Part shown: positions 2,208 to 21,048 of the stretch, one piece after another
How the letters are laid out: every line of letters starts with the position of its first letter
Numbering within the stretch: position 1 is the stretch's first letter
DNA from: Candidatus Iainarchaeum sp.
GTDB lineage: Archaea; Iainarchaeota; Iainarchaeia; Iainarchaeales; CSSED10-239
DNA: 32,000 nucleotides
Reading direction: 5' to 3'
NCBI GenBank assembly: GCA_028700115.1
Contig: JAQVTI010000010.1
Location: forward strand, 1 to 32,000
Position numbers and translations under genes: made by a program
Notes under the pieces: generated by a model
Database searches by the model: none
What the model was told of the DNA's origin: nothing
What the model saw: only the letters and a program-made list of their open reading frames with translations

Positions 2208-3194
2208 TTACTTAAATCTTCTTTTATTTAGTCTAGATCTTGTAAATTTATCACTAAGCTTAGAAAAAACATTTTTCTTTGCATGTCTTTTTGCAATAGT
2301 TTCTCTAACACCTTTTGGATATTTTTCTTTTAGTTTTTCTATAAAAACATATGGATTTGCTTCTCTTCCTGAGTTATTAACCCATTTAATTACAGCTTCT
2401 GCAGTCTCTTTTCTAATATCTCCAATTGTTGCTTTTGTTTTTCCTTCCATATGTTTAGCAATTATATTTGCTTGTATATTTTCTATTATCTCTCTATTAT
2501 TTCTTAAAGAATCAATTATAGCAATCTTCTTACTAGAACCCATTCCTGAAAATCTATAATATTTCCAACTAAATTCTTTTATTTCATTCTCATATAAAGA
2601 AAATAATTTACCTAATCTTTTATTAACTTTTAAAGATTCTGTATGATTAATAGACAAAAATCTTGGGACATTTAAAACTCTTTCAATTGCTTGTTTTCTA
2701 GAAACCCCATATAATAATTCTATATTTTTTAATCTTTTTTCATGATCGAATGAAATAAATTGAGGAAAATTTTTTATAAGATTTTTTGTAATTTCTTTAG
2801 AAACACCATAAGTTTTAGAAATATTATTGAATTTTACTTCAAAATTAGTATATATTGAAGGAAATGCTAAAAACAATTCTTTTGTTTTATTAATAGGCAA
2901 ATCTAAAAAATTAGAAAGACTTGTAAGATTTATTTTATGATTATAATTTAAAACATTTGGAGTATATCTAATTAATTTTAAAGTTTTTGAAACAGTTATA
3001 TTATAAATAGTCATAATTTCAGAAATTTTTGAAGAAATAAACTCTCTACTTGGATAAGAATTCTTCCTTGCAAAAACATCTCTTAAAGATCTTAAAAATT
3101 TAATATCTTCTTTTTTATTTAAATCTAAAGATAAAGCTTCAACAATAAATCTTTTTCTTTTTCTATTTTCTTCTAAACTAATTTTATTAACCAT
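2208..3194 (-). CDS. helical-repeat protein, mTERF-like repeat pattern (tentative)
   Basis: The 328-aa ORF has about five tandem ~32-aa units of the form G-V-S-x3-I/L-x3-L/I-x3-P-x-F/I-L/I-S-x5-L. Examples: IRYTPNVLNYNHKINLTSLSNFL, LFLAFPSIYTNFEVKFNNISKTY, GVSKEITKNLIKNFPQFISFDHEKRLKNIELLY, GVSRKQAIERVLNVPRFLSINHTESLKVNKRL. The call rests on pattern recognition only. Confidence 0.4.
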   Translation of the reverse strand: MVNKISLEENRKRKRFIVEALSLDLNKKEDIKFLRSLRDVFARKNSYPSREFISSKISEIMTIYNITVSKTLKLIRYTPNVLNYNHKINLTSLSNFLDLPINKTKELFLAFPSIYTNFEVKFNNISKTYGVSKEITKNLIKNFPQFISFDHEKRLKNIELLYGVSRKQAIERVLNVPRFLSINHTESLKVNKRLGKLFSLYENEIKEFSWKYYRFSGMGSSKKIAIIDSLRNNREIIENIQANIIAKHMEGKTKATIGDIRKETAEAVIKWVNNSGREANPYVFIEKLKEKYPKGVRETIAKRHAKKNVFSKLSDKFTRSRLNKRRFK

Positions 3195-3363: not shown

Positions 3364-3699
3364 CTAATGAATATTTGACCCATTTTCAATTTTCTCAGAA
3401 GGAAAAAGTAATGCTTCAACTTCATTTTCACCAATTGCAAGAATCATTCCTTGACTTTCAAGACCCATTAATTTTCTTGGTTCTAAGTTTACAATTACAG
3501 GAAGTTGTTTATTTAATAAATCTTCAGGATTATATTTAGTTCCTATTCCTGCAAGGATTTGTCTTTTAAAATTACCAAAATCAAAAACTAATCTTAAAAG
3601 CTTATTACTTTTTTCAACTCTTTCTGCTTCAATAATTTCTCCTAATCTTATATCTAATTTCATAAAAGTTAAAAAATCTATATTTTCTTTAATATTCAT
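3364..3699 (-). CDS. tRNA-binding domain protein (Trbp111/CsaA/MetRS C-terminal-like OB fold)
   Basis: MNIKENIDFLTFMKLDIRLGEIIEAERVEKSNKLLRLVFDFGNFKRQILAGIGTKYNPEDLLNKQLPVIVNLEPRKLMGLESQGMILAIG is the classic signature of the EMAPII/Trbp111-type tRNA-binding domain. The start was moved to ATG 3699 because the track's upstream extension overlaps tRNA-His. Confidence 0.8.
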   Translation of the reverse strand: MNIKENIDFLTFMKLDIRLGEIIEAERVEKSNKLLRLVFDFGNFKRQILAGIGTKYNPEDLLNKQLPVIVNLEPRKLMGLESQGMILAIGENEVEALLFPSEKIENGSNIH

Positions 3700-3726
3700 A
3701 AACAAACACATATAAAATTTCAAAAG

Positions 3727-3799
3727 GGTCCAAGCCGGGATTTGAACCCGAGCCAGGGGATCCACAGTCCCCTATGCTAACCACTACACTACATGGACC
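3727..3799 (-). tRNA. tRNA-His (anticodon GUG) with genomically encoded G-1
   Basis: Minus strand: G(-1) GTCCATG TA GTGT AGTGGTTA GCAT A GGGGA CTGTGGA TCCCC TGGC TCGGG TTCAAAT CCCGG CTTGGAC C. G-1 lies opposite C73, the His identity feature. There is one U-U mismatch in the acceptor stem. Confidence 0.88.
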
Positions 3800-3915
3800 A
3801 TTATAAACATTATTTTTATTAAATTAAAAATAATTTTAATAAAAAAACATCTAATTAGTAATATATATAAGATTAAATATATTTTTAAAGATTTCATAAA
3901 ACAATAATTAGATAT

Positions 3916-5361
3916 ATGAACATAAAAAATAAAAAAGGACAATCAGAAGTTATAAGTTATGTTATTATAATATTTATTGTAGCTATAATTGTATCAATAA
4001 TAATTACACAAATAAATCCAGTTATTTCAAAATCTAAATCAAAACAAAACTTTCAAACTTCAAAAACACAAATTGAACTAATTGAAAAAACAATAAAAGA
4101 AGTTATGCTAGAACCAACTAGTTCTTCTAAAAGCATAAGATTAGATTTAGAAAATTTATTTTTAAATGTAGACTCAGATTTAAACAAAATAGAAATATTT
4201 CATATAATGAGTGGAGACTACTATGAAAATGAAATAAAAATAAAAGAAGGAAATAAATTCACATATAGAGAAAATCAAAAACTTTTTTCAGGATTAGAAT
4301 TTGAAGACATAAATATAGTAAATAAACTTTTTATACAAAATAAAACCTTAGACTTATACTTTACAAAAACTTCAAGAAATACTTTAGAAATAACAACAGA
4401 TGTTATTGAAGATAGTAAATGGTATGATGAAGAATATAGTTATAGAACTAAACTATTAATAGATGCTAATAAAGTATATGGAGATTTAGAAAACTTTCCT
4501 GTTTTAATTAAAATAAATGATAGTGATATTTTAGAGAAAATAAAAGAAGATGGTTCAGATTTAGTTTTTACTCTTCCTGATGGAGAAACTAAACTTTATA
4601 GAGAAATTGAATATATTGATACAAGTGATGAGATTTTAGTTTGGGTAAATATACCTTATATAGATGATGAATTTGGAACTTTAATTTACATGTATTTTGG
4701 AAACTCTTTAGGTGATGAAGAAAACACAACAAAGACATGGAACAAAGATTATGTTTTAGTTCAACATCTAAATGAAACAAGTGGAACAATTTATGATTCT
4801 ACAAAATATGATAATGATGCAACTAATTATAGTGCAACTAGTGGAGCAACTGGACAAATTGGAAAAGCTTATTTTTTTAATGGAAGTTTATCATATTTAA
4901 CAATACCATCAACTACAATAGAAGAAAATGGAACTGTTTCTTTATGGATGGATATTAGTAATGCTACTAGTACACAATACTTTCTAGGAGGACCAGGCCA
5001 AGGGATAAGATATAATGGAACTTCTTTTTTGGTATTTAATGGTGGAAGTGAATGGGTTGCTTTAAATTGGAACAAAACAGGATATACTTGGATTAATTTA
5101 TATATTAAAAGAATAAATGCAAATGATTACAAAATTTATGTGAATGGAACAGAGATTGGAAACTCAATTGCAGGAAACACAGGAACAGATATAAGTTTAA
5201 ACTTAATTGGAAAAAGATCAGATGGTTATTATTTTAATGGAAGTTTAGATGAAATAAAAATTTCAAATAAATCAAAAAGTGAAGAATGGATAAAAACAGA
5301 ATATATAAATCAAAATAATCCTTTAGAGTTTTATGGAGTTGGTGAAATTGAAACTAACTAA
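3916..5361 (+). CDS. type IV pilin-like protein (class III signal peptide) with DUF2341-like and LamG/concanavalin-A-like lectin domains
   Basis: The N-terminus MNIKNKKGQ|SEVISYVIIIFIVAIIVSIII has a short basic leader, K-G-Q and a ~20-aa hydrophobic helix. From about 4420: WYDEEYSYRTKLLIDANKVYGDLENFPVLIKIN...DGSDLVFT...LVWVNIPYI...IYMYFGN (DUF2341-like). From about 4750: LNETSGTIYDSTKYDNDAT...GKAYFFNGSLSYLTIP...LDEIKISNKSKSEEWIKTEY (Laminin_G_3-like). Confidence 0.75.
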   Translation: MNIKNKKGQSEVISYVIIIFIVAIIVSIIITQINPVISKSKSKQNFQTSKTQIELIEKTIKEVMLEPTSSSKSIRLDLENLFLNVDSDLNKIEIFHIMSGDYYENEIKIKEGNKFTYRENQKLFSGLEFEDINIVNKLFIQNKTLDLYFTKTSRNTLEITTDVIEDSKWYDEEYSYRTKLLIDANKVYGDLENFPVLIKINDSDILEKIKEDGSDLVFTLPDGETKLYREIEYIDTSDEILVWVNIPYIDDEFGTLIYMYFGNSLGDEENTTKTWNKDYVLVQHLNETSGTIYDSTKYDNDATNYSATSGATGQIGKAYFFNGSLSYLTIPSTTIEENGTVSLWMDISNATSTQYFLGGPGQGIRYNGTSFLVFNGGSEWVALNWNKTGYTWINLYIKRINANDYKIYVNGTEIGNSIAGNTGTDISLNLIGKRSDGYYFNGSLDEIKISNKSKSEEWIKTEYINQNNPLEFYGVGEIETN

Positions 5362-5362
5362 A

Positions 5363-5872
5363 ATGTATAAAAATCAAAAAGGACTATCAAGTATATTTTC
5401 ATATATTTTTTATATTTTAATAGGGCTTTCTATTTTATCTATAGTTTTAATGCAAGGAAATCAAATTATTAAAAAAAATGAAGAAAGATATGCATATGAA
5501 AAAACTATAGAAAATGTAAATAAAATTTATGAAACAATAAATAATACATCAACAAATAAAGGAAATAATATTACACAACAGATATATATCCCTTTTGAAA
5601 TTGAAATAGATTGTTCTAATAATAAAATATTTGGAAAAGTAGAATATTCTTCTAACTTTAAAGACGGAAATATAGAAATACAAGGAATTAATATTTATAG
5701 AAAATATAACCAAATATATTTTGAAAAAAATATAAACTTACCAATAAATTTAGATTGTAATACATTAATTTTAAATAAAGGAAATAAAAATTTAGAATTT
5801 ATTTATAAAAATTATGATATATCTACAGAACAAATAAATATAGATATAAAATATATTGACTTTACAAAATAA
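5363..5872 (+). CDS. small type IV pilin-like protein (class III signal peptide), candidate structural pilin
   Basis: Starts at ATG 5363, 1 nt after the upstream stop. MYKNQKG|LSSIFSYIFYILIGLSILSIVL is followed by about 135 aa with no extra domain. The track's upstream extension (5333) overlaps the previous gene and was rejected. Confidence 0.65.
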   Translation: MYKNQKGLSSIFSYIFYILIGLSILSIVLMQGNQIIKKNEERYAYEKTIENVNKIYETINNTSTNKGNNITQQIYIPFEIEIDCSNNKIFGKVEYSSNFKDGNIEIQGINIYRKYNQIYFEKNINLPINLDCNTLILNKGNKNLEFIYKNYDISTEQINIDIKYIDFTK

Positions 5873-5881
5873 AGATAAACT

Positions 5882-8803
5882 ATGAATTTAAAAAATAAAG
5901 CTGGAATAATTCCTTTAGTAACAGGAGTAATAATTACTTTAATATCTATAATTATAGCAGGGATTATAATTTCATTTGCATCAGATTATTTTGGAAGTTT
6001 AGAAGACATACAAAATTATAATAATAACAAGAATAATTTAGAATATATTAATAATGTATTAAATGATTTATCAAGTAAAGGAGAAGGAAGTTATAAACTA
6101 ATAGATTTAGACCCTACAAATATTATAACATTTAATCAAACAGAAAATAACATTACAATTACACAAATTGTAAAAAATAATAATTTTTATAAAAAACAAG
6201 ATGAAAATAAACAAATTGGAAATTTAAATATTTCTAAAGAAAATATGAAATTAATTTTTACTTTAGACTTAAACAATATAGTTGATTTAAATAACTCAAT
6301 AGATATTACAAGTACAAGACAAAAAGTTAAATTTGAAGTAGCTGATGATTCTTCTAGTTCTTTTAAAATTGCAGTTAATAGAGAAGATGCAGTAGTTTCT
6401 GAAGAAATACAAATTATTTTAGAAGATGCAAGTCCTGCTCTTTCAAATGTTTCTTCAGGGACCTATTATTCCGAACAAACAATTACTTTAACCTCTTTAA
6501 CTGAAAGTTCTACAATTTATTATACTTTAGATGGATCAACACCTACTGATTCTTCAACAGAATATACAACTTCATTTTCTTTAACAGAAACAACTACTCT
6601 AAAAACAATAACTTATAAAGAAAATTATAATCCTTCAGAAATTACAACTTATACTTACACAATAGATATACCAACTGAACCTACTGTTTATAACCAACTA
6701 TTATTTTCAAGTGAAGGCAATGATACAACTGATGAAAACTTAGAAATAAGTTTTAGTTCAATTTCTCCAGGAGGGGTAGACACATATATAATTACAGATT
6801 GGAGAAAAGACAATAGTTCAATGTGGCTTATAAACACACCTTTTGATAAACAAGTATCAGGATATACCTCTGGAAATATTAAAAGTTATACAAGTTATGG
6901 AACAACATATAATGGAACTTTAGGTGCAGGATATTCTACAAGAACACCTACATGGACAACTACAAATTGTCCTTTAGGGGGTTGCTATAATTTTGATGGA
7001 AGTGATGATTACATATCATTTGGAAATGGAAGTTTATATAATAATAAATATTTTACAACATGTGTATATATTAGACCAGACACAGTAAATAAACAACAAG
7101 GACTATTTGGACAATATGATAATCACGGAGTATATAGATATAGAGTCTATTTAAATTCAAATAATAAAATATATTTTGAAGTAGGATGTGATTATTCAAG
7201 TCCAGAATGTAGTTCTGGATGGAAAACTACAATATATTCAAATAAAACAATAAGCGCAGGAGAAACAGCATATGTTTGTGTTACATATGATGAACAATAT
7301 GCCAAAATATATATTAATGGAGACTTAGATAAATCACAAGCAGAAACTAGGCATATAGGGGCAGGATATCTTAATTATTTAGGCACAAATACATATACTC
7401 CTTCAGTTATAAAATATTCTGTATCATATACATTTGATGGAATCTTAGATGAATTTCTTGTAAAAGATACTGCCTATTCTGCAGAACAAATTAAACAAAT
7501 GTATACAGATTTAGAATCTGGAAAACATATAAACTCAATTGCTTCTCAAGAAACAGGAAGTGATGAACAATGGAGTGTTTATTTAACACCAACTGATCTT
7601 ACAGATGAAGGAACTACAAAAGTTACAAATAATTTATATGTAGATGAAATACTAACTCCTCCTTTATCTAATTATCCTTCAGCTACATATTTTGATTCTT
7701 CAATTGATGTAAATTTATTTACTCTAAGAACAGGAAACACAATTTATTATACAACAGATGGATCAACTCCAACAGACTCATCAACTGAGTTTACAGATTT
7801 AATAAATATTTCAGAAGACATTACTCTAAAAGCAATTAACTATAAAGGAAGTCTGACACCTTCAAGTGTTTCTACATTTAATTATTCTTTTGCAACTTTA
7901 GATTTATCAAATATTTTATTATCTTCAAGTTCTGATACAAACACATCTAGTGAAGATTTAAATATAACATATACAATAAACAACCCTAATAGCTATACAG
8001 ATGTAACAGTTATTACAGATTGGAAAAAGAATGGAAACTCAATTGCTGTTTTAAATATGCCTTTTGATGTAAATATATCTAATTCAAATTATAAAAATGT
8101 AAAAGATTATTCAGATAATTTAAATCATGCAACTCTTGGAGATGGAGATAGTAATAACTCACCTACTTGGACAAACTCATCTAGTTGTAAGGTTGGAGGA
8201 TGTTATGATTTTGATGGGGTAAATGATACAATAAATATAGAAAATGAAAGTGATTTTGATTTTACAAATGCATTTACATTATCTGCATGGATATATCCTA
8301 GAGACTTAACTGCTTCAAAAGCAATATTTAGAAAAGACTCTGCATATATATTATATTTATCTACAGGTTTAGATTTATATAACTGGGCAGATTCAACAAG
8401 ACTTATTTGTGATATATCAAATATAACTGTAAATACATGGCAATTAGTTACTGCTACTTGGGATGGAACTACTAAGAAAATATATGTAGATGGAACTTTG
8501 TGTAATTCTCTTACAGATTCAACAAATTTTAATACAACTGATAATGATATAAGAATAGGATCTTCTTCAACAGTAGGTATGAATTTTGATGGGTTAATTG
8601 ATGAAGCTTTAGTTTTAGATTTTGCACTTACACAAGATCAAATTACTGCTCTTTATAATGCAGGTGTTGCAGGAAAACATTTAGAAACAATTGATTCAAG
8701 TGAAACAACTTCTGGAGAAGAATGGAGTGCAAATTTATTTGTTACAACTAATCAGTCTTCAAAAAGTGCAGACGAATCAAATAGCATAACTATCTTACCT
8801 TAG
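5882..8803 (+). CDS. large type IV pilin-like adhesin: class III signal peptide plus two tandem (CHB_HEX_C-like + LamG) modules
   Basis: N-terminus: MNLKNKAG|IIPLVTGVIITLISIIIAGIIISF. Two paralogous modules follow. Each has a motif GTYYSEQTITL...IYYTLDGSTPTDSSTEY / ATYFDSSIDVNL...IYYTTDGSTPTDSSTEF (chitobiase/hexosaminidase C-terminal-like). Next comes ITDWRKDNSSMWLINTPFD / ITDWKKNGNSIAVLNMPFD. Then a LamG-like GGCYNFDGSDDYISF...ILDEFLV / GGCYDFDGVNDTINI...LIDEALV, and finally EQWSVYLTPTD / EEWSANLFVTT. Confidence 0.75.
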   Translation: MNLKNKAGIIPLVTGVIITLISIIIAGIIISFASDYFGSLEDIQNYNNNKNNLEYINNVLNDLSSKGEGSYKLIDLDPTNIITFNQTENNITITQIVKNNNFYKKQDENKQIGNLNISKENMKLIFTLDLNNIVDLNNSIDITSTRQKVKFEVADDSSSSFKIAVNREDAVVSEEIQIILEDASPALSNVSSGTYYSEQTITLTSLTESSTIYYTLDGSTPTDSSTEYTTSFSLTETTTLKTITYKENYNPSEITTYTYTIDIPTEPTVYNQLLFSSEGNDTTDENLEISFSSISPGGVDTYIITDWRKDNSSMWLINTPFDKQVSGYTSGNIKSYTSYGTTYNGTLGAGYSTRTPTWTTTNCPLGGCYNFDGSDDYISFGNGSLYNNKYFTTCVYIRPDTVNKQQGLFGQYDNHGVYRYRVYLNSNNKIYFEVGCDYSSPECSSGWKTTIYSNKTISAGETAYVCVTYDEQYAKIYINGDLDKSQAETRHIGAGYLNYLGTNTYTPSVIKYSVSYTFDGILDEFLVKDTAYSAEQIKQMYTDLESGKHINSIASQETGSDEQWSVYLTPTDLTDEGTTKVTNNLYVDEILTPPLSNYPSATYFDSSIDVNLFTLRTGNTIYYTTDGSTPTDSSTEFTDLINISEDITLKAINYKGSLTPSSVSTFNYSFATLDLSNILLSSSSDTNTSSEDLNITYTINNPNSYTDVTVITDWKKNGNSIAVLNMPFDVNISNSNYKNVKDYSDNLNHATLGDGDSNNSPTWTNSSSCKVGGCYDFDGVNDTINIENESDFDFTNAFTLSAWIYPRDLTASKAIFRKDSAYILYLSTGLDLYNWADSTRLICDISNITVNTWQLVTATWDGTTKKIYVDGTLCNSLTDSTNFNTTDNDIRIGSSSTVGMNFDGLIDEALVLDFALTQDQITALYNAGVAGKHLETIDSSETTSGEEWSANLFVTTNQSSKSADESNSITILP

Positions 8804-8861: not shown

Positions 8862-9428
8862 ATGATACCTACAGAAAAACAAGCAATTGAAATTCTTAAA
8901 AAATATATTAAAGGAAAAGCTAATTTAGAACATAATTTAATTGTTGGATATGGAATGAAAGGAATTTCTAAATTTCTTGGAAAAAAAGAAGATGAACAAA
9001 ATAGATTTTTTGTAATTGGTACTCTTCATGATATTGATTTAGAAAAATACAATGGAAATATAAAAAATCATTGTGTAGTTGGAGAAGAAATCTTAAATAA
9101 AGAAAATATAGATAAAGAAATCATTAGAACAATTAAAACACATAATGAAATTTTAGGAATAAAAAAAGAAAAAGAAGAAGACCATTTACTTTTCTCAATA
9201 GATGGGCTTTCTGGAATTATTAGAGCATATGTTTTAATGAGACCAGATAGAGATATTACACAAGCTAAACTTAAATCTATTAAAAAAAAACTAAAAGACA
9301 AAGGATTTGCTGCAAATGTTTCTAGAGAAGAAATATATTATGCTCCTGATCTTTTAAAAATTGAAAGAGACAAATTTATTGAAGCTGTTTTAGAAGAAGT
9401 TAAAAACAATATGGACTTTAGAGAATGA
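8862..9428 (+). CDS. HD-superfamily metal-dependent phosphohydrolase
   Basis: LEHNLIVGYGMKGISKFLG...IGTLHDIDLEKY...HCVVGEEIL...IKTHN shows the H...HD...H...H spacing typical of small stand-alone HD hydrolases. Confidence 0.6.
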   Translation: MIPTEKQAIEILKKYIKGKANLEHNLIVGYGMKGISKFLGKKEDEQNRFFVIGTLHDIDLEKYNGNIKNHCVVGEEILNKENIDKEIIRTIKTHNEILGIKKEKEEDHLLFSIDGLSGIIRAYVLMRPDRDITQAKLKSIKKKLKDKGFAANVSREEIYYAPDLLKIERDKFIEAVLEEVKNNMDFRE

Positions 9429-9434
9429 TTAAAA

Positions 9435-9707
9435 ATGGCAAAACCAATTAATATTAATTGTAGAAAACAAATACCTACTCTAAAAATTAAAGAACTTAAA
9501 AAAGTTTATAATAAATTAGGATTTGTAGAAGACGAACAAAGACATAGACATATTATTTTTAAAGATAAAAATGGAAAACAACTTATCTTAATGAAAGGAC
9601 AAAAAGACATACCTTCAGGTACATTAATGCAAATAATTACAGAAATGGCAAAAGAAACAGGAAAAACTAAAAAAGAAATAATTGAGTTTATTATGAAACA
9701 TAAATAA
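9435..9707 (+). CDS. HicA-like (YcfA family) putative mRNA interferase
   Basis: LKIKELKKVYNKLGFVEDEQRHRHIIFKDKNGKQLILMKGQKDIPSGTLMQIITEMA matches the HicA layout: K-x-K-E-L-x-K-x-L-x-x-x-G-F, a His-containing strand, then ...IP-x-G-T-L-x-x-I. It starts 6 nt after the HD gene. No HicB-like partner was seen. Confidence 0.5.
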   Translation: MAKPININCRKQIPTLKIKELKKVYNKLGFVEDEQRHRHIIFKDKNGKQLILMKGQKDIPSGTLMQIITEMAKETGKTKKEIIEFIMKHK

Positions 9708-11281: not shown

Positions 11282-12379
11282 CTAAAATAAAGAGAAAAAG
11301 AAATTTTTTAAAATATCAAAAATATAAACTTCAGTAAAAACTCCAACAAATAAGAAACCAATTGCAAAAGCTAATAAAATAAAACAATATTTTATAATAT
11401 TAATAAATCTATCAGACTCAATTTTTTCCTTAGAAATTCCAACTGAAAGCAAATTACCACTCATTGCTCCTAAAAAATAAGATATTATTTCTAAAATCAT
11501 ATGTGGCAAAACACTTAAAAGTAAAGGAATTAGGAATGCAAAAAATCCAGTTTGATAAAACAAAGCATAAGTTAAAGAATATTGAGTAAAAACAACACCC
11601 CAGTAAACTGCATTCCAAACAATTATTAAAATTGCCCCTAATGGAAACACTAAGGCAATTATTAAAGCAACAAGCATTACTGAGAAATTATTTACAAAAA
11701 TATCTAAAAATACAGATTGTTTTGATTGGTTTGAAAAACCTATATCTTTTGATGGAAGTAAAGAATCATTCCAACCATTTGAAGAAAATAAAGATGAAGA
11801 ATATTCTTGAGGAATAAAAGCTACTAAAGAAATTACAACTAGAAATATTCCTAAAAAAAAATTTAAATAAACAGAAAGAATTTCTTTATTTTCATAATAT
11901 AATTGTTTAAAAGAAAGATCAATTTTATTTGAAAAACTAGGTTTAAATTTAAATAAAGTTATACCTTTACTTTCTACTCTCTCTGTTCTTCCAACTAAAA
12001 GTTCATTATATCTTATTTGCTTTTGTATAAATGGAGCTAGAAACAAAGTTGTTAAAAAAACAGCAAAAACACCTGGGTTGTTTGGAAAAAGTAAAATTGC
12101 AAAACAAAAACCTACCATTGTTCCTAAAATTGCAAAATAAAGAGACTTTAAATTTCTAGGCAAATCATCTGCTAATCTTTCAGGTATACTTTTTATATAA
12201 TCTAAAATCTCTAAAAATTTGTTTTTTACAATATGCTTTTTTGGTCTAAAAGCTTTACTATAATCATGATTATTCTTTTTTTTCTTTTTTGGTTTTTCTG
12301 AAAAACCATCTAAACCTTCTGAGAAACTTATATTTGTATTTAACTCTTTTAAAGACATTTTAGATTTTTTTAAAGCCAT
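11282..12379 (-). CDS. polytopic membrane protein, SpoIIM/DUF95-like
   Basis: Several TM helices. FLDIFVNNFSVMLVALIIALVFPLGAILIIVWNAVYWGVV and LPHMILEIISYFLGAMSGNLL resemble the SpoIIM family signatures (N-N-x-x-V... N-G-x-x-x-G; P-H-G-I-x-E-I/L-x-A). There is a long basic N-terminal extension. Confidence 0.5.
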   Translation of the reverse strand: MALKKSKMSLKELNTNISFSEGLDGFSEKPKKKKKNNHDYSKAFRPKKHIVKNKFLEILDYIKSIPERLADDLPRNLKSLYFAILGTMVGFCFAILLFPNNPGVFAVFLTTLFLAPFIQKQIRYNELLVGRTERVESKGITLFKFKPSFSNKIDLSFKQLYYENKEILSVYLNFFLGIFLVVISLVAFIPQEYSSSLFSSNGWNDSLLPSKDIGFSNQSKQSVFLDIFVNNFSVMLVALIIALVFPLGAILIIVWNAVYWGVVFTQYSLTYALFYQTGFFAFLIPLLLSVLPHMILEIISYFLGAMSGNLLSVGISKEKIESDRFINIIKYCFILLAFAIGFLFVGVFTEVYIFDILKNFFFSLF

Positions 12380-14594: not shown

Positions 14595-15263
14595 ATGAGG
14601 TTAAAAGAGATCTCTCCAGAAAACAGACCGATTGAGAGAATGGAATATTTTGGAGAGGAAAGCTTATCAAATTCCGAACTGCTTGCAATCATTCTAAAGA
14701 CAGGAACTAGAAAAACTAATATCCTAGATTTATCAAACCATATTTTAAATAAATATACTCTTGAAAAACTTAGAAACTGCTCACAACAAGAACTCTGCAA
14801 GATACATGGTATAGGAAAAATTAAAGCTTGCCAGATAAAAGCAATCTTTGAGCTTCACAAAAGAATCTCAACTCCACAAACAAAAGAACTTACTAAAATA
14901 TATTCGCCTAAACAAATTGTAGATATTTTAAAACCTGACTTTGAAGGAAAAGAACAAGAGCATTTAATATGTATTTTTCTTAAATCAAATATAATTATTT
15001 CAAAAAAAATAATCACAATAGGCACAAACAATCAAACATTAATCTCAAATAAAGATATTCTAAAACATGCAATTAAACAAACAGCAGACAGCATAATTAT
15101 CTCACATAACCATCCACAAGGAGATCCAACTCCATCAAAAGATGATAGACTGGCTACCAAAAAACTTAAAGATGCATGTAACTCTATTGAGATAATTCTT
15201 CTAGATCATATTATAATAGGAGATAATAACTATTTTAGTTTTAAAGAAAACCAGATTATATAA
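14595..15263 (+). CDS. radC: RadC-like JAB/MPN domain protein
   Basis: MRLKEISPENRPIERMEYFGEESLSNSELLAIILKTGTRKTNILDLS...ELCKIHGIGKIKACQIKAIFEL (HhH region), then IIISHNHPQGDPTPSKDD (JAMM-type H-x-H-P-x-G...S-x-x-D). Confidence 0.88.
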   Translation: MRLKEISPENRPIERMEYFGEESLSNSELLAIILKTGTRKTNILDLSNHILNKYTLEKLRNCSQQELCKIHGIGKIKACQIKAIFELHKRISTPQTKELTKIYSPKQIVDILKPDFEGKEQEHLICIFLKSNIIISKKIITIGTNNQTLISNKDILKHAIKQTADSIIISHNHPQGDPTPSKDDRLATKKLKDACNSIEIILLDHIIIGDNNYFSFKENQII

Positions 15264-15319: not shown

Positions 15320-15796
15320 ATGAAATTTAAATTTTTAGGAATACTTTGTATACTTTCTTTAGTTTTACTTACAAGCACAGTTTCTGCTGAAATTGATTTA
15401 GAAAATATAGATTTTGGATATTATTTTAACAATTTAGAAGAAGCAGGACAAGAACTTCAAGAAAATGTATATCAACTTCCAAATTTTATTAAAAAACAAT
15501 TAGATAAAGAAATAATATATCTTGAACTTGAAGATATTAACACAACTTACAAAGTTAAGATTGAAAAGATTGAAGAAAAATATACAATCACAAAAGAAAA
15601 CCTTGAAAACTACACAATTGAAATTAAAACTACAGTTGCAAAACTTCAAGAACTTCTAAACTCAGAAGACAAGATGGATGATTTTAATAAAGCTTTAAAA
15701 AACGGATATATCACAATAAAAGGGAAAGGATTTTTTAATAGCTTACAAACTGGACTTGCTAAATTTTTCTTAAAAGTAGGAAGTTTATTTTCTTAA
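15320..15796 (+). CDS. secreted hypothetical protein
   Basis: Sec-type signal MKFKFLGILCILSLVLLTSTVSA|EIDL. The rest is acidic and coiled with no recognised family. Its stop shares the tetranucleotide TTAA (15793-15796) with the convergent tgt stop. Confidence 0.5.
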   Translation: MKFKFLGILCILSLVLLTSTVSAEIDLENIDFGYYFNNLEEAGQELQENVYQLPNFIKKQLDKEIIYLELEDINTTYKVKIEKIEEKYTITKENLENYTIEIKTTVAKLQELLNSEDKMDDFNKALKNGYITIKGKGFFNSLQTGLAKFFLKVGSLFS

Positions 15797-16896
15797 ATTT
15801 TATAATTTTTTAAAAAATCTATCTGGAAACTTTCAAAGTTTCCTTCTTTTATTTTTTTTCTTGCTTCTTCTATTAATCTATGAATAAATCTTATATTATG
15901 CATAGACATTAAAATTTTAACACCAGGTTCATTTAATCTATATAGATGATATAAATAAGCTAAAGTATGTTTTTTACAACAAGGACAATCACAATCTTTT
16001 TCTACTTTTTCAAAGTTTTCTTTATAGATTGCTTTTTTTATATTAATAGGTCCTTTTCTTGTAAATAAAATTCCATGTCTTGCCATCTTTGTAGGATAAA
16101 TAGAATCAAAACAATCCACCCCTTTTCCAATAGCTTGAATAATATCTTCAGGAGACCCAACACCCATTAAATATTTTATTTTACCTCTATCTATATGCTC
16201 TAGAGAATAATCAATTGCCTTGTGCATGTTTTCTTTTGACTCACCTAAAGCAAGACCACCAATTGCAATTCCATCAAATGGTAGAGAATTAATTTCTTTT
16301 GCACATTTTTCTCTTAAATCTTTATATATCCCACCCTGAACTATTCCAAAAAGTAATTGATCTTTATTTTTATGTACTTTTATAGCTCTTTTTGCCCAAT
16401 CAATAGTTCTATTTACTGCAATTTCATAGTCTTTTTTAGTTTTATGTGCATCTTGCATATCATCTAAAATCATAGCAACATCAGAAGATATATTATTTTG
16501 AAGTTTGATTACTCTTTCAGGAGACATAAAATGTTTATCTCCATTAAAAGGTGATCTAAACCAAACTCCTTTATTATTTATCTTAATCATAAATTCTGGA
16601 TTTTTTAATTGAAAACCTCCAGAATCTGTAAAAATTCCACCTTTCCAATTTATAAAATTATGATAATCTTTTGTTTTTTTTAAAAGATCTTCTCCTGGTT
16701 TTAGATAAAGTAAATATGAATTTGAAATAAAACATTTTGTATTCAATTTTTCTAATTGATCTAAAGTTAAATACTTAGCAATACCTTTTGTTACTACAGG
16801 CATAAAAAAAGGAGTTTTAATTTCTGCATGCTTAGTTTTTAAAACACCTGTTCTTGCAAGTGTATTTTTATCTTTTTTAGAAATTGTAAAACACAT
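15793..16896 (-). CDS. tgt: tRNA-guanine transglycosylase family protein, catalytic core only
   Basis: TPFFMPVVTKG; IFTDSGGFQL (catalytic Asp); LFGIVQGG; GIAIGGLALGE; YLMGVGSPEDI; DCFDSIYPTKMARHG; Zn site CDCPCCKKHTLAYLYHL. At 367 aa it has no C-terminal PUA-containing extension. Confidence 0.88.
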   Translation of the reverse strand: MCFTISKKDKNTLARTGVLKTKHAEIKTPFFMPVVTKGIAKYLTLDQLEKLNTKCFISNSYLLYLKPGEDLLKKTKDYHNFINWKGGIFTDSGGFQLKNPEFMIKINNKGVWFRSPFNGDKHFMSPERVIKLQNNISSDVAMILDDMQDAHKTKKDYEIAVNRTIDWAKRAIKVHKNKDQLLFGIVQGGIYKDLREKCAKEINSLPFDGIAIGGLALGESKENMHKAIDYSLEHIDRGKIKYLMGVGSPEDIIQAIGKGVDCFDSIYPTKMARHGILFTRKGPINIKKAIYKENFEKVEKDCDCPCCKKHTLAYLYHLYRLNEPGVKILMSMHNIRFIHRLIEEARKKIKEGNFESFQIDFLKNYKI

Positions 16897-16919: not shown

Positions 16920-17783
16920 TTAAAATATAAGAAATAAATATTTAGAAACTAATAAAAAAACAATAAGTCCTAAAAAAATAAAAGGACCAAACTTAGGAAG
17001 ATTATAATAAATTGGAAGTTTTTTTATTTTTTTAGATTTTTTAAATCTTAAGATATCTTTTTCTTCAATAACTGTTCTGTTTTTTAATTTTAAATCTTCT
17101 AAAGATAAATCTTTTAGATACTCAACAGCTAAAACATCTCCATCTTCTAGATCATTTACTAACTTATATTCTAAATAAATATATTCTTTAACTTCTTTTT
17201 CAAAAATCACAATAAAAAGCCCAAATAAAATAGGAATTAATATTAAAAAATATAAATAATTAAAATACAAAGTAGAAAAAGAATATATAAGCATAAATAA
17301 AAATATTAAAAAGAAAAATACAGATTTAATTATATAATTTATTTTAGATTTTAATAAATCTAAAAATTTAATTTTTTTAATTCTAAAAACTTTAATAAGT
17401 TTAAATGAATAGACTATAGAAATTATAAAAACAGATAATAATGAAGAAAATAAAATTACCCAAAGAATAGTTAGTTGATTATTTAGATAAGGCAAAACTA
17501 AATGAAGACCAATAAATAATTTAATATCCCCTCCTCCAAGTTTCCCAAAATAATACAACAAATATCCAATAAGATAAATTAAAACTCCTATTCCAATTAC
17601 TTTTAAAAAATAAATATAACCTAATAAATTAATTATAAAACAATCTAAAACTAAAAAGATTAATCCTAAACAAATTAATGGAAAGCTAAGCCAATTATAA
17701 ATATATCCTTTTTTAAAATCTGTATAGCTTGCAATAAAGCAAGCAATTACTATAACTATAATTTTTAAAATTAACAAATCCAT
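16920..17783 (-). CDS. A24-family prepilin/preflagellin peptidase (PibD/FlaK-like)
   Basis: Polytopic membrane protein with the two aspartate motifs: ASYTDFKKGYIYNW near the N-terminus and GKLGGGDIKLFIGL. Confidence 0.75.
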   Translation of the reverse strand: MDLLILKIIVIVIACFIASYTDFKKGYIYNWLSFPLICLGLIFLVLDCFIINLLGYIYFLKVIGIGVLIYLIGYLLYYFGKLGGGDIKLFIGLHLVLPYLNNQLTILWVILFSSLLSVFIISIVYSFKLIKVFRIKKIKFLDLLKSKINYIIKSVFFFLIFLFMLIYSFSTLYFNYLYFLILIPILFGLFIVIFEKEVKEYIYLEYKLVNDLEDGDVLAVEYLKDLSLEDLKLKNRTVIEEKDILRFKKSKKIKKLPIYYNLPKFGPFIFLGLIVFLLVSKYLFLIF

Positions 17784-17795
17784 ATTTTTTCAAAA

Positions 17796-19193
17796 TTATT
17801 TAAATTTAAAATTTTTTGCCATTTGTTCCATTTGTTTAGGGTCCATTCCTTCCATTTTAGATAAATCTGGTATTTTACCACCCATTTTTCTCATCATAGA
17901 ATTTATATTCCCACCACGTGCACCAAATTGTTTAAACATCTTCCTCATCTTTTTTACATGAGAAATCATTTCTCTAACTTCTTCAAATTTAGTTCCTGAA
18001 CCTTTAGAAATTCTTTCAATTCTACTTCTAGTAATATCTTGGGGAATTGAATTTAATTCATTTTTTGTAAAAGAATCAAGTATAAAACCATATTTTTTTA
18101 TTTTCTCTTGACCCATATTAAGTTGATCTTTAGGAATCTTACCACCTATTCCAAGCATATTTATAACTTTTGAAAAAGGACCTAATCTTTTTGTAGCTTT
18201 TAATTGCTTTTTAAAAAGATTAAAAGTAAAGTCTCCTTTCATAAGCTCTTGAGCCATTTTTTCATCAATATCTTCTTCAGTTCCAAGTTCTTTAATTTTT
18301 TCTAAAAGACCTTCTAAATCCCCAAAACCTAAAATTCTAGAAAGATATCTATTTGCATCAAATATTTCTATATCTTCTAACTTTTCACCAGTTCCTATAA
18401 AATAAATAGGGGATTTTGTAATATAACATGCAGTTAATGCTCCACCACCTTTAGCAGAACCATCAAGCTTAGAAATTATAACCCCATTAATACCAATTGC
18501 TTGGTTAAACTTTTCTGCTTGTTCTTTTGCAGCTTGACCAATATCAGCTGAAAGAACTAAAAATGAATATTTTGGTAAAAAAACAGAATTAATATCTTTA
18601 ATTTCTAGAGTTAATTGATCATCTAAAGCACTTCTTCCAGCAGTATCTACAATTATTAAATTAACTTTGTCTTTTAATTCTTCTAAACCTTTTTTAACAA
18701 TCTCACTTGCAATTTTTATAGATTTATCTCCATAAAAAAAACACCCCACCTTATCACATAACTGTTTTAATTGTTCATAAGCTGCAGGTCTAAAAACATC
18801 TGCACAAATTACACCTACTCTTTTTCCTCTTTTTCTATAAAAATTAGCAAGCTTTCCAGCACTAGTTGTTTTTCCAGAACCAAAAAGTCCACATAAAAGT
18901 ATTTTTTCTGGGTTTTCTTCTAATTTTTTTTCTTGGTCCCCACCTATGTTTTTTAAAATAATATCATAACAAATTTTTACAATATGTTCTTTTCTAGTTA
19001 ATTCTTCTGGGATTTTTTCAAAAGCTTTTTCTTCTATCTCTTTTGAAATTTTTAAAACTAATTGAATATTTACATCTGAAGAAATTAAAGCTCTTTGGAT
19101 ATCTTTAATTACTTCTTTTATTAGATCTTTATCAACATGAATAGAATATTTAACTTTATCAATTGCACTTTTTAACTTATCCCCAAAACCCAT
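17796..19193 (-). CDS. srp54: signal recognition particle protein SRP54
   Basis: GLFGSGKTTSAGKLA; DTAGR; SKLDGSAKGGGAL; Met-rich M domain (...MRKMFKQFGARGGNINSMMRKMGG...MEGMDPKQMEQM). The track start is a TTG; the ATG at 19193 (MGFGDKL) is preferred. Confidence 0.93.
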   Translation of the reverse strand: MGFGDKLKSAIDKVKYSIHVDKDLIKEVIKDIQRALISSDVNIQLVLKISKEIEEKAFEKIPEELTRKEHIVKICYDIILKNIGGDQEKKLEENPEKILLCGLFGSGKTTSAGKLANFYRKRGKRVGVICADVFRPAAYEQLKQLCDKVGCFFYGDKSIKIASEIVKKGLEELKDKVNLIIVDTAGRSALDDQLTLEIKDINSVFLPKYSFLVLSADIGQAAKEQAEKFNQAIGINGVIISKLDGSAKGGGALTACYITKSPIYFIGTGEKLEDIEIFDANRYLSRILGFGDLEGLLEKIKELGTEEDIDEKMAQELMKGDFTFNLFKKQLKATKRLGPFSKVINMLGIGGKIPKDQLNMGQEKIKKYGFILDSFTKNELNSIPQDITRSRIERISKGSGTKFEEVREMISHVKKMRKMFKQFGARGGNINSMMRKMGGKIPDLSKMEGMDPKQMEQMAKNFKFK

Positions 19194-19321
19194 ATATAAC
19201 AACTCTTTTATTATAAAAATACAACAAATACTAAAATATATTTATATATATTTAGTAAAGAAAGAAATATAAAGGGTTTATCTTATATAAAATAATAACT
19301 AAAGAAAAAAAGGTGAAACAA

Positions 19322-19456
19322 ATGCCAATTAAAAAAATATTCAAAAAAAAACAAAATAAAAAAATAATCCAAGAAAAAAGAAAAGGATTAACAGAAAAAG
19401 AAGCAATTGAAGAATTTAAAAAACATATTAGAGAACATACTAGAAAAACTAAATAA
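19322..19456 (+). CDS. small basic protein (44 aa), hypothetical
   Basis: MPIKKIFKKKQNKKIIQEKRKGLTEKEAIEEFKKHIREHTRKTK*. It is preceded by GGTGA (19312-19316) with a 5-nt spacer to the ATG. Its 3' end overlaps the convergent ftsY stop by 8 nt. It falls below the ORF-track length cutoff. Confidence 0.4.
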   Translation: MPIKKIFKKKQNKKIIQEKRKGLTEKEAIEEFKKHIREHTRKTK

Positions 19457-20936
19457 TCCTATTAACTATATAACTTGCAGAAAAATCTTCTAAATCATTA
19501 TAATTTTGACCTGTTCCTATAAAAAAAATTGGCTTTTTAAGCTCATTTAAAATAGAAATTGCAACACCACCTTTAGGGTCAGTATCTATTTTTGTTAAAA
19601 TAATTCCATCAAGACCAATCTCTGAATCAAATTTTGAAATTTGATCAACAATTGATTGCCCAGTTTGAGATTCTCCAATATATATTGTTATATGTGGTTT
19701 TATTACTCTTTTAATTTTTTCAAGTTCTCTTAATAAATTAGAATTTGTATCTTGTCTTCCAGCAGTATCTATTAAAACAATATCATAATTATTAGCTTTT
19801 GCAGAAGTAACAGTATCAAAAGCAACAGCAGCTGGATCAGAACCATAATTTTGTTTAATTATTTTAACTCCAATTCTATTTGCATGTTCTTGTAATTGAT
19901 CAATACTTCCTGCTCTAAAAGTATCTGAAGAAGATAAAATTATTTTTTTACCATTATCTTTAAATTTTTTTGCAAACTTTGCAATTGTAGTAGTTTTCCC
20001 AGCACCATTTGGACCAACAAATAAAATAATTAAAGGTTCTTGTAAATTTTTTGGAATAAATTTATTAAAATCACAATCAATATCAAGCTCTAAAAGTAAA
20101 CTTTCTTTAATCACATTTTTAATATCTTCCATTAAATTTTTTTTAGAAAAAGAAGCAGACTTTAACTGTTCTTTCAAACTATTTACAATTGCTTGAGAAG
20201 CATTTATTGAAACATCAGCTTCAAGTAAAGATAACTCAAAATCTTCTAAAAAAAAAGAAATATCACTTTCAGAGAGTTTAATTTTTGAAGAAAATAAAGA
20301 CTTTAACGAACTAGAAATACCTGTTTTTATAGAATCTTGCTTTTTAAAACTTAAATCTTGATATTCCTTTGAAGAAAAATCAATTTCTCTTTTAAAACCA
20401 GAAGCAAGCTCTTGTTTTGTAAAAGAATGACCACTTGGGGGGATATCTTGTTCTTTTTTAATTTTTATTTTTTGTTTTTCTATATATTCTTCTGATTTTA
20501 AAAAATTATTTGAATCTCGAGATAAATTTTGATTTTGTATAAGATCTTCTTCAACATCAGATTTTATTTTTTCTTCTTCAACATCAGATTTTATTTTTTC
20601 TTCTTCAGAAATGTTTTTAATTGAAATAGATTTATTTGACTTAACATTATTATTTATTATATTAATATTATTATTTTGACTGTCATTAGCTTCATGTCCA
20701 AGAAATAATGGTTTTTCCTTATTTAAAATATTTTCATCAGATTTTTCTAAAATATTTTTATTTTGAATAGTTTCAATATTTGATTTATTTTGTAAATCTT
20801 TAACTAAATTTTCAGATTTAAAATTATTATCTAAAATCTCTTTTGAATCTTTTAAAGAGTCTTTAACTTTTTCTTCTGATTTCCCAAAAACTTTTTCTGC
20901 AAACCCTTTAAATTTTTTTTTAAGCATCCCAAACAT
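19449..20936 (-). CDS. ftsY: SRP receptor FtsY with a long low-complexity N-terminal region
   Basis: NG domain: FVGPNGAGKTTTIAKFA; DTAGRQ; TKIDTDPKGGVAISI. The track start is a GTG; the ATG at 20936 (MFGMLKKKF) is preferred. Confidence 0.92.
   Translation of the reverse strand: MFGMLKKKFKGFAEKVFGKSEEKVKDSLKDSKEILDNNFKSENLVKDLQNKSNIETIQNKNILEKSDENILNKEKPLFLGHEANDSQNNNINIINNNVKSNKSISIKNISEEEKIKSDVEEEKIKSDVEEDLIQNQNLSRDSNNFLKSEEYIEKQKIKIKKEQDIPPSGHSFTKQELASGFKREIDFSSKEYQDLSFKKQDSIKTGISSSLKSLFSSKIKLSESDISFFLEDFELSLLEADVSINASQAIVNSLKEQLKSASFSKKNLMEDIKNVIKESLLLELDIDCDFNKFIPKNLQEPLIILFVGPNGAGKTTTIAKFAKKFKDNGKKIILSSSDTFRAGSIDQLQEHANRIGVKIIKQNYGSDPAAVAFDTVTSAKANNYDIVLIDTAGRQDTNSNLLRELEKIKRVIKPHITIYIGESQTGQSIVDQISKFDSEIGLDGIILTKIDTDPKGGVAISILNELKKPIFFIGTGQNYNDLEDFSASYIVNRII
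20546..20607. repeat. 27-nt in-frame tandem repeat (about 2.3 copies) inside ftsY
   Basis: cttcttcaacatcagattttatttttt is repeated at offset 27. It encodes EEEKIKSDV-EEEKIKSDV. Confidence 0.85.
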
Positions 20937-21048
20937 AAAAATCACTAATAATTATAAAATATATAAAATATTAAAGGTAAAAAGATTTAAATAATAAACT
21001 AGAATAAGATAAATTAAATAAAAATAAAAAAAAGATAAATTATAAAAA

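Follow-up and report, generated by a model that had tools for sequence, protein, structure and literature searches.

Three consecutive genes on the + strand of contig JAQVTI010000010.1 from Candidatus Iainarchaeum sp., a DPANN archaeon with a tiny genome (assembly GCA_028700115.1), designated P1, P2 and P3, are the subject of this work. They lie within positions 1 to 32,000 of the contig, and this whole stretch of 32,000 nucleotides (nt) is referred to below as the window. Its GC content is ~23%, and genes for L31e, L39e, S19e, eIF-6, prefoldin, Hjc and the RNase P subunit Rpr2 identify it as archaeal DNA. An initial annotation had placed three open reading frames (ORFs) of 481, 169 and 973 amino acids (aa) here, with gaps of 1 nt between P1 and P2 and 9 nt between P2 and P3, and reanalysis returned the same coordinates and spacing (Table 1). 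P2 has in-frame alternative starts at 5348 (174 aa) and 5333 (179 aa), the former being the one taken by gene callers. No terminator-like site was found between the three genes, and no promoter could be assigned upstream of P1 in DNA of 23% GC with a scan that used sigma-70, which is inapplicable to archaea. The features described below suggest that these genes probably encode a trio of type IV pilin-like carrier proteins, two of which are joined to large lectin-type cassettes.

Table 1. Coordinates of the trio, its modules and flanking elements, the prepilin peptidase gene, and the genes with AAA_14 and DUF4143 domains found in related loci (L numbers).
Feature	Locus	Position	Strand	Description
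tRNA-His	window	3726-3798	-	borders the region upstream of P1
AT-rich intergenic stretch	window	3799-3915	+	5' of P1, between tRNA-His and the P1 start codon; presumed promoter region
P1 (A-type)	window	3916-5361	+	ORF of 481 aa
P1 carrier module	window	3916-4425	+	residues 1-170: basic leader, hydrophobic helix, beta module
P1 DUF2341 + Laminin_G_3 cassette	window	4441-5340	+	residues ~176-475 (Pfam)
P2 (B-type)	window	5363-5872	+	ORF of 169 aa, bare carrier module
P3 (C-type)	window	5882-8803	+	ORF of 973 aa
P3 carrier module	window	5882-6406	+	residues 1-175
P3 first CHB_HEX_C-LamG cassette	window	6422-7594	+	residues ~181-571
P3 second CHB_HEX_C-LamG cassette	window	7646-8746	+	residues ~589-955
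A24-family (FlaK/PibD-type) prepilin peptidase	window	16920-17783	-	287 aa, polytopic, PF01478
AAA_14 + DUF4143 gene, trio locus	L001	9463-10752
AAA_14 + DUF4143 gene, trio locus	L004	4949-6244
AAA_14 + DUF4143 gene, trio locus	L007	13190-14473
AAA_14 + DUF4143 gene, trio locus	L035	4153-5442
AAA_14 + DUF4143 gene, other locus	L015	1611-4637
AAA_14 + DUF4143 gene, other locus	L022	12959-13978
AAA_14 + DUF4143 gene, other locus	L024	8438-9784
AAA_14 + DUF4143 gene, other locus	L031	12038-13381

Class III-type N-termini

Each of the three proteins begins with a basic leader that ends in a small residue and is followed by about 20 hydrophobic residues starting a helix (alpha-1), the features that define archaeal class III signals. 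The P1 leader MNIKNKKG precedes QSEVISYVIIIF, so that its boundary reads KKG/Q, and the P2 leader MYKNQKG precedes LSSIFSYIFYIL, with the boundary QKG/L. The P3 leader MNLKNKAG precedes IIPLVTG; here the family alignment places the boundary at NKAG/IIPL, with K at -3 and A at -2, and KA/G is the alternative. Judged by sequence, the pattern is that of archaeal class III (FlaK/PibD) substrates, as the initial annotation had proposed for all three proteins, and not that of ordinary signal anchors without a peptidase site. A scan of all window ORFs of at least 50 aa, run from each start codon for K or R, then G or A, then a 20-residue hydrophobic stretch, returned no true gene starts besides those of P1, P2 and P3; the remaining hits fell at internal starts within a MatE gene or on a transmembrane helix further along the A24-family peptidase. 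A stricter rule applied to 462 ORFs of the window and of non-redundant related loci was matched by 21, of which 17 are members of the trio family and two are other class III-type proteins (P0052 of locus L013 and a partial gene in L031). The last two, both from L029, look like chance matches, one of them being an ordinary Sec-type signal. Because the matches cluster in the trio family, the K/N/I-rich, AT-driven composition does not explain three adjacent ones.

The same boundary is retained throughout the three families, here termed A, B and C after the order of P1, P2 and P3. K followed by G, A or S was present in all of ~30 relatives, with K at position -2 in every member except P3 of the window, and G in most members, otherwise A or S, at position -1. 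Position +1 was occupied by ~10 residue types, and this variability beside a fixed boundary is consistent with selection on a peptidase site. Leaders were 5-17 residues long and carried a net positive charge in all but one member, which was net neutral. At least 20 uncharged hydrophobic residues followed the boundary (~22 in the window trio), and the mean Kyte-Doolittle hydropathy at +4 to +23 was 2.0-3.3 in all members. The A-type carrier has, in addition, an invariant E at +3 (K-G/Q-S-E-V-I-S).

An acidic residue near the predicted mature N-terminus is thus invariant only in the A-type (3916-3960 in P1), and none occurs in the B- or C-type. The tip-most subunits of bacterial systems are told apart by whether they have Glu5, and by analogy the acidic residue confined to A may hint at the order of assembly.

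Elsewhere in the window, a 591-aa secreted protein with a transglutaminase core (25948-27723, - strand) combines a Sec-type signal of the ordinary kind with a transmembrane anchor at its C-terminus, and is conserved in L013. It indicates that ordinary signal peptides of this genome do without the K-G boundary, and it is itself a further candidate surface protein.

Carrier modules and exchanged cassettes

An exhaustive HMMER search with P2 over 1.84 billion representatives recovered only 20 clusters (at 50% identity), consisting of stand-alone proteins of 164-180 aa or of 491-1118-aa proteins in which a ~165-residue module is followed by DUF2341-LamG. The N-terminal module of P1 is common to the full-length relatives P0002, P0003 and P0004, and that of P3 to P0017, P0005 and the third genes of L004 and L007. 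Pairwise BLASTP among the three N-termini of the window aligned the leader alone. Profile-profile comparison with hhalign matched the families over ~165 columns, with probabilities of 96.2% for A and B (E 2e-9), 97.4% for C and B (E 1e-11) and 96.3% for A and C (E 2e-9); these scores derive in part from the hydrophobic helix, and the alignments nevertheless reach the end of the beta domain. Matches over nearly the full length argue that the operon encodes three distant, paralogous carrier modules. The initial annotation had regarded the middle gene as a normal pilin between two unusual ones, a view that does not hold: P2 is one of three paralogous carriers, and its B-type relatives can carry DUF2341-LamG and reach at least 1154 aa.

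AlphaFold models of P1 and P2 show the general shape of a pilin, a continuous helix of 58-60 residues followed by a beta domain of ~100 residues. The P2 model, built on a 19-sequence alignment, has a predicted local distance difference test (pLDDT) score of 90.6, with a helix at residues 5-64 and then ten strands. The P1 model has an overall pLDDT of 78, with a helix at residues 7-64 and a less confident beta module at 71-164. The B module contains two invariant Cys residues (C84 and C132 in P2). No significant match between the carrier module and structures in the PDB, solved pilins included, was obtained, and the B-module profile retrieved nothing from PDB sequences, so that the term pilin-like rests on topology together with the signal.

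Beyond the carrier, P1 and P3 have the domains that the initial annotation assigned to them, and Pfam identifies no family in P2. The DUF2341 match of P1 (residues 212-298) scored 25.0 bits against a cutoff of 23.4 and is stronger in relatives, and its Laminin_G_3 match (residues 323-459) had an E value of 1.2e-10. In the model these correspond to two confident beta-sandwiches (pLDDT ~85-93), DUF2341 at ~176-300 and a LamG jelly roll at ~300-475. In P3, CHB_HEX_C_1/Fn3_assoc and Laminin_G_3 (E 4.5e-42) each match two stretches, and the carrier is followed by two units of CHB_HEX_C/Fn3_assoc, linker and LamG; the two halves are a tandem duplication with 35% identity over 398 aa. Searched with Foldseek, the LamG part of P1 matched ConA-like jelly rolls, among them carbohydrate-binding domain 4 of the arabinanase AbnA (5hon; TM 0.72, root-mean-square deviation 3.1), a trans-sialidase lectin-like domain and clostridial neurotoxin Hc-N. 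LamG thus has a lectin-type fold, and sugar binding would be its putative function. The CHB_HEX_C domain is an Ig/Fn3-like domain of spacer type, and its presence does not speak for sugar binding.

The composition of the trio is of the extracellular type, low in K and high in S and T, with 18-27 N-glycosylation sequons per 1000 aa compared with a window median of ~9. In a comparison of the window with L002, a relative of 79-90% identity, P3 was the fastest-diverging gene (79%), and its most divergent segment was the first LamG domain, with 67% identity against 87-90% for neighbouring genes. Rapid change of this domain would be expected of a ligand-facing surface, as far as the single pairwise comparison (window and L002) goes.

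A ligand need not belong to a partner cell. Iainarchaeota have been suggested to be fermentative, possibly free-living and less host-dependent than other DPANN, so that a host is not assured. The proteins could instead form a short, cell-bound structure, assembled by a type IV route, in which LamG and CHB_HEX_C domains catch environmental polysaccharides for feeding, comparable to the bindosome, a role of this kind having been proposed for the class III sugar-binding proteins of Sulfolobus. The AbnA carbohydrate-binding domain among the best structural matches of LamG would suit such nutrient capture, as would the established use of class III signals by archaeal binding proteins that are not pilins, which is reported to be widespread (preprint 10.64898/2026.04.22.720090). 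This explanation has a small though real chance of being correct. A substrate-binding-protein fold is absent from the trio, neither an ABC transporter nor a glycoside hydrolase adjoins it in any locus, and the cassettes are adhesin-like repeats, not solute-binding domains.

The initial annotation had called for a comparison of gene order in related genomes, and seven or more unrelated metagenome contigs were found to have the genes in the order A-B-C; it is listed for the window, L002, L010, L007, L008, L004, L001, L035, L017, L034 and L037. The cassettes carried by the three genes differ among these loci. The window, L002 and L010 share DUF2341-LamG on A, a bare B and two CHB_HEX_C-LamG cassettes on C. 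All three genes carry DUF2341-LamG in L007 and L008 (506, 509 and 495 aa for A, B and C), which have the same neighbourhood as the window, with HD, aspartyl-tRNA synthetase (AspRS), SpoIIM and PDDEXK genes. L004 encodes an A of 806 aa, a B of 819 aa and a C of at least 369 aa with CHB_HEX_C; L001 and L035 encode an A of 517 aa and a B of at least 1154 aa, and L037 an A of 303 aa and a B of at least 479 aa, with no C seen in these three loci. In L017, A and B are bare and C has a different extension. L034 has only bare carriers, of 168, 177 and 170 aa for A, B and C, and this minimal trio of ~170-aa proteins indicates that the carriers are autonomous and pilin-sized and that the large domains are grafted additions. 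With cassettes ranging from none in L034 to all three genes in L007, the trio appears as a conserved core on which cassettes are swapped. P1 and P3 join a carrier to domains that are not specific to pili, and the carriers also occur bare, which is the arrangement by which modular pilins are defined.

A gene for an ATPase with AAA_14 and DUF4143 domains recurs inside or right after the trio, lying between A and B in three loci, and is absent from the trio of the window. Copies are also found in other loci (Table 1), and one adjoins a type IV pilus-type ATPase in several Iainarchaeia genomes. The gene could represent a multi-copy or mobile family, or a real functional link.

Peptidase, assembly ATPase and genomic surroundings

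The A24-family peptidase reported in the initial annotation is well supported: its match to PF01478 (E 1.1e-12) scored 48.7 bits against a cutoff of 26.5, both catalytic-type Asp residues are present (D22 and GGGD86), and the protein has at least six hydrophobic segments. No relative in the PDB was detected at the sequence level. It is a candidate for the enzyme that removes the trio leaders. The gene order SRP54 - A24 peptidase - TGT (tRNA-guanine transglycosylase) is conserved in L013 and L037. In syntenic L013, a class III protein, P0052 (800 aa, with four CHB_HEX_C domains and GLUG motifs), is encoded between FtsY and SRP54, so that a single gene separates it from the peptidase.

The longer order FtsY - SRP54 - A24 peptidase - TGT is likewise conserved (17796-20945 in the window; 7935-14780 in L013). 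At the FtsY-SRP54 junction the window has just a 246-bp gap (19203-19448).

No T2SSE or T2SSF domain is encoded in the window, in agreement with the initial annotation, which had found no assembly ATPase or platform gene there and had suggested searching the rest of the genome. The ATPase family was traced from an L015 gene that encodes a T2SSE domain and lies close to the gene of a related class III protein; the T2SSE gene has full-length orthologues of 71-87% identity in genomes assigned to Iainarchaeum, 'ainarchaeum', Diapherotrites and Forterrea. One of these, P0163 (769 aa, with a T2SSE domain), is encoded on contig JAQUYT010000014.1 of GCA_028691725.1, and contig JAQUYT010000027.1 of the same metagenome-assembled genome (MAG) carries a trio copy of 100% identity. 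The accessions of P0163, MDD3178221.1 and MDD3975703.1, belong to the same two series as those of the window proteins; P3 is 100% identical to MDD3178354.1 and MDD3976147.1 from 'Candidatus ainarchaeum sp.' MAGs (Iainarchaeia, Diapherotrites, DPANN). The closest solved relatives of the L024 orthologue, which is 82% identical to P0163, are A. fulgidus GspE (1e-30), CpaF of the Tad system (1e-24) and FlaI (5e-24). Since P0163 and the trio copy occur in one assembly, the genome does not lack an assembly ATPase, a lack that the initial annotation had named as grounds for abandoning its reading. Diapherotrites reference genomes are, moreover, stated to have type IV pili (PMC8561730).

The Iainarchaeia ATPase itself, of GspE/FlaI type and ~770 aa, has a Cys-rich N-terminal extension of ~300 residues and is always a lone gene adjoining RPA and close to an S_layer_C protein, features seen in six loci. 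A 1300-aa ORF in L029 that resembled a paralogue is most likely the same ATPase with an intein, by comparison with P0275, the only one of these proteins for which intein and LAGLIDADG domains were recorded. Beside the ATPase, L031 also encodes a small Cys-rich protein (6747-7088), which was discounted as a candidate major pilin because it has no small residue at the boundary.

The partial class III-type gene of L031 (1-318), 8 kb from the ATPase P0163 and at the contig end, encodes MFGNDFYKKA followed by ISPLIATVLIVLVSVV; it has a weak match to Pilin_N (E 0.0033, below cutoff), and its full-length form is a candidate for the shaft subunit. This separate Pilin_N-type gene in the same MAG bears on another possibility, in which A, B and C would build the shaft as its repeating, major subunits, giving a heteropolymeric filament with LamG domains along its length. 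The minimal trio of L034, with three pilin-sized proteins only, and the lack of a separate major pilin near the trio would be in keeping with such a filament. In relatives, however, all three subunits carry cassettes of 300 to more than 1000 residues, which would be hard to accommodate at every position of a shaft and so speak against this role, and the bulky modular pilins of bacteria were modelled to fit only at the tip (PMC9934059). A decorated shaft is accordingly judged very improbable.

Several results weigh against the pilin reading. Pilin N-terminus models of Pfam and NCBIfam (Pilin_N PF07790, Class_IIIsignal, N_methyl) matched none of the three proteins at E values up to 1, and no pilin model was recovered when 19 B-family members were compared with Pfam up to E = 10; the only hints were sub-threshold, GspG (TIGR01710, E 0.054) on P1 residues 17-66 and DUF7289 (E 0.065) in 2 of the 19 members. 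Confidence in the N-terminal module of P1 is moderate (pLDDT 50-80). LamG domains are also known to act structurally or to bind proteins. No major pilin was identified, and no FlaJ/TadC-type platform gene (T2SSF) was found in the window or beside the ATPase in six Iainarchaeia loci (L015, L021, L022, L024, L029 and L031). The lack of a link to pilus loci, which the initial annotation had named as grounds against its reading, is partly borne out: in every locus examined, at least seven trio loci among them, the 10 kb around the trio contain neither an ATPase nor a platform gene.

This distance from pilus machinery, together with the lack of a match to pilin family models or to solved pilin structures, would also be compatible with uncleaved signal-anchor (type II membrane) surface proteins, acting as lone adhesins or in association with the S-layer and without type IV machinery. 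The positive-inside rule by itself places lysines ahead of a transmembrane helix, and bacterial homologues are commonly large LamG surface proteins with ordinary Sec signals. Such anchors, however, require neither the small residue (G, A or S) that invariably follows K in ~30 divergent relatives nor the freedom observed at +1. Nor do they account for three paralogous modules in fixed order, whose bare ~170-aa forms would be functionless as lone anchors, for an A24 peptidase conserved nearby and an assembly ATPase in the same MAG, or for a predicted helix of ~60 residues that continues into the globular domain. Simple membrane anchoring is thus regarded as unlikely.

The remaining surroundings of the trio include several genes of note. 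An ORF at 3364-3765 (- strand, GTG start, 133 aa) overlaps tRNA-His, and this tRNA_bind-domain gene most likely starts instead at Met 3699; its product would then have 111 aa, the length of the homologues in L002 and L011. The 328-aa product of 2208-3194 (- strand) matches the Pfam family mTERF with 25.7 bits, above the gathering cutoff of 23.1 (E 6e-6); this family is known from eukaryotic organelles and is unexpected in an archaeon. Downstream of the trio, the upstream partner of a HicA toxin gene (9435-9707) is an HD-domain protein (8862-9428), not a HicB antitoxin, and the HD-HicA pair (8862-9707) is conserved in L002 and L010, where it follows the trio immediately. Three bacterial-looking genes, encoding a queuine-type TGT of bacterial length without a PUA extension (15793-16896, - strand, 367 aa), a RadC-like JAB protein (14595-15263) and a SpoIIM-family membrane protein (11282-12379), are all syntenic in relatives.

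Proposed function and comparison with known systems

Taken together, the evidence suggests that the trio proteins are probably paralogous archaeal type IV pilin-like carriers, that is, modular pilins, which cap a filament or form a short stalk; their most likely role is that of an adhesive pilus tip, an archaeal version of bacterial modular pilins. From the observed sequence features we infer a scheme of five steps. The proteins would insert into the membrane, the A24 peptidase would cut off the leaders, and the GspE/CpaF/FlaI-type ATPase encoded elsewhere in the genome would power extraction and assembly. The three alpha-1 helices of the carriers might then pack into a small heteromeric complex serving as the filament cap or a short surface stalk, and the outward-facing ConA-like jelly rolls would attach to glycans or glycoproteins, whether of other cells or of surfaces. 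A complex of three subunits is suggested by likeness to GspI-J-K and, most closely, to S. sanguinis PilA-PilB-PilC. Attachment to a host, as proposed in the initial annotation, would be a reasonable conjecture. It is also conceivable, if rather doubtful, that the trio is an undescribed, lineage-specific scaffold confined to Iainarchaeum-type DPANN, an obligate heterotrimeric tip or stalk with 'plug-and-play' positions onto which cassettes (DUF2341-LamG, CHB_HEX_C-LamG and others) are exchanged between lineages, built by an orphan GspE/FlaI-type ATPase whose lack of an adjacent platform gene would be unusual among archaea, and serving as the main contact organ.

The way of life of DPANN archaea is believed to depend on contact with other cells or surfaces, and few of the molecules involved are known. 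The locus offers a concrete and testable contact candidate, with three small carriers that have a predicted peptidase site and LamG domains that can be expressed. The concept of the modular pilin is not itself new, and the initial annotation's claim of an unprecedented architecture is too strong in view of several precedents (PMC8179133; PMC9934059; PMC4858521; PMC5498576). What is new is a carrier family that current models do not recognize and that is very narrowly distributed, together with its organization as a constant set of three paralogues, the varied combinations of cassettes that these carry and the separation from any machinery locus. Current pilin models fail to detect the carrier, and surveys of archaeal pilins probably overlook this family. 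The trio would extend the modular-pilin idea from bacteria to archaea, and the shuffling of domains on a fixed scaffold of three carriers provides a natural experiment in how pili gain binding specificities.

Bacterial modular pilins comprise more than 1,200 proteins in 264 architectures, with PF13385 among the top modules and many members from bacteria of the candidate phyla radiation (CPR); the survey was keyed to the bacterial motif and did not mention archaea (PMC8179133). The closest functional parallel is found in S. sanguinis, in which PilA, PilB and PilC, one small and two modular minor pilins with vWA and ConA-like lectin modules, were modelled as a complex that fits only at the tip, where it presents adhesive modules (PMC9934059). 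Both systems have three pilin-like subunits with bulky modules on a small pilin moiety; the module of PilC is a ConA-like lectin, and Laminin_G_3 (PF13385) is frequent in bacterial modular pilins. The S. sanguinis proteins carry the bacterial N-methylation motif (IPR012902) with Glu5, in contrast to the archaeal-type boundary of K followed by G, A or S and the lack of an N_methyl match in the trio, and the carriers of the two systems have no sequence or detectable fold relationship. The trio, known from sequence only, differs further in that its carriers are mutual paralogues, each bare or loaded according to lineage, and are not encoded in a pilus locus.

Among archaea, large DUF2341 proteins in Methanococcus/Epd-type (clade-1) pilus loci have been suggested to act at the tip as adhesins resembling PilY1 (Makarova, Koonin and Albers 2016, PMC4858521). 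These predicted type IV pilus adhesins (arCOG03508) share DUF2341 with P1. They sit inside ATPase/TadC loci, unlike the trio, which is never within 10 kb of such genes, and the A/B/C carrier family was not described for them (PMC4858521). Thousands of archaeal class III binding proteins have also been reported (preprint 10.64898/2026.04.22.720090). The Sulfolobus bindosome proteins resemble the trio in placing a class III signal and helix on an extracellular binding domain, with genes away from the assembly machinery. Their solute-binding domains are encoded beside ABC transporters, in contrast to the LamG, DUF2341 and CHB_HEX_C domains of the trio, which has no flanking transporter, and they lack the pilin-sized beta domain between helix and cassette.

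LamG domains have been associated with surface structures in two further archaeal systems. LamG jelly-roll expansions in DPANN genomes, some of them beside type IV pilus loci, were proposed to function in host-cell interaction (Mia14; Golyshina et al. 2017, PMC5498576); the trio shares with them the DPANN setting, the LamG fold, a proposed role in cell contact and a putative link to type IV pili, whereas neither pilin fusions nor a conserved carrier trio are described in that paper. TafC of the Haloarcula hispanica Tat-fimbriae is an experimental case of an archaeal filament with a LamG tip subunit (PMC11821415). Like P1 and P3, TafC combines a module resembling a filament subunit with a C-terminal laminin-G-like domain, and it is modelled at the filament end as the adhesin and assembly initiator. 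Membership of the TafC family (NCBIfam NF052521) was considered and rejected, the score being 77 bits against a cutoff of 410 with the LamG region alone aligned (profile positions 156-366) and no RR motif present. TafC is secreted by the Tat (twin arginine) pathway, and its assembly relies on donor-strand exchange instead of a type IV mechanism.

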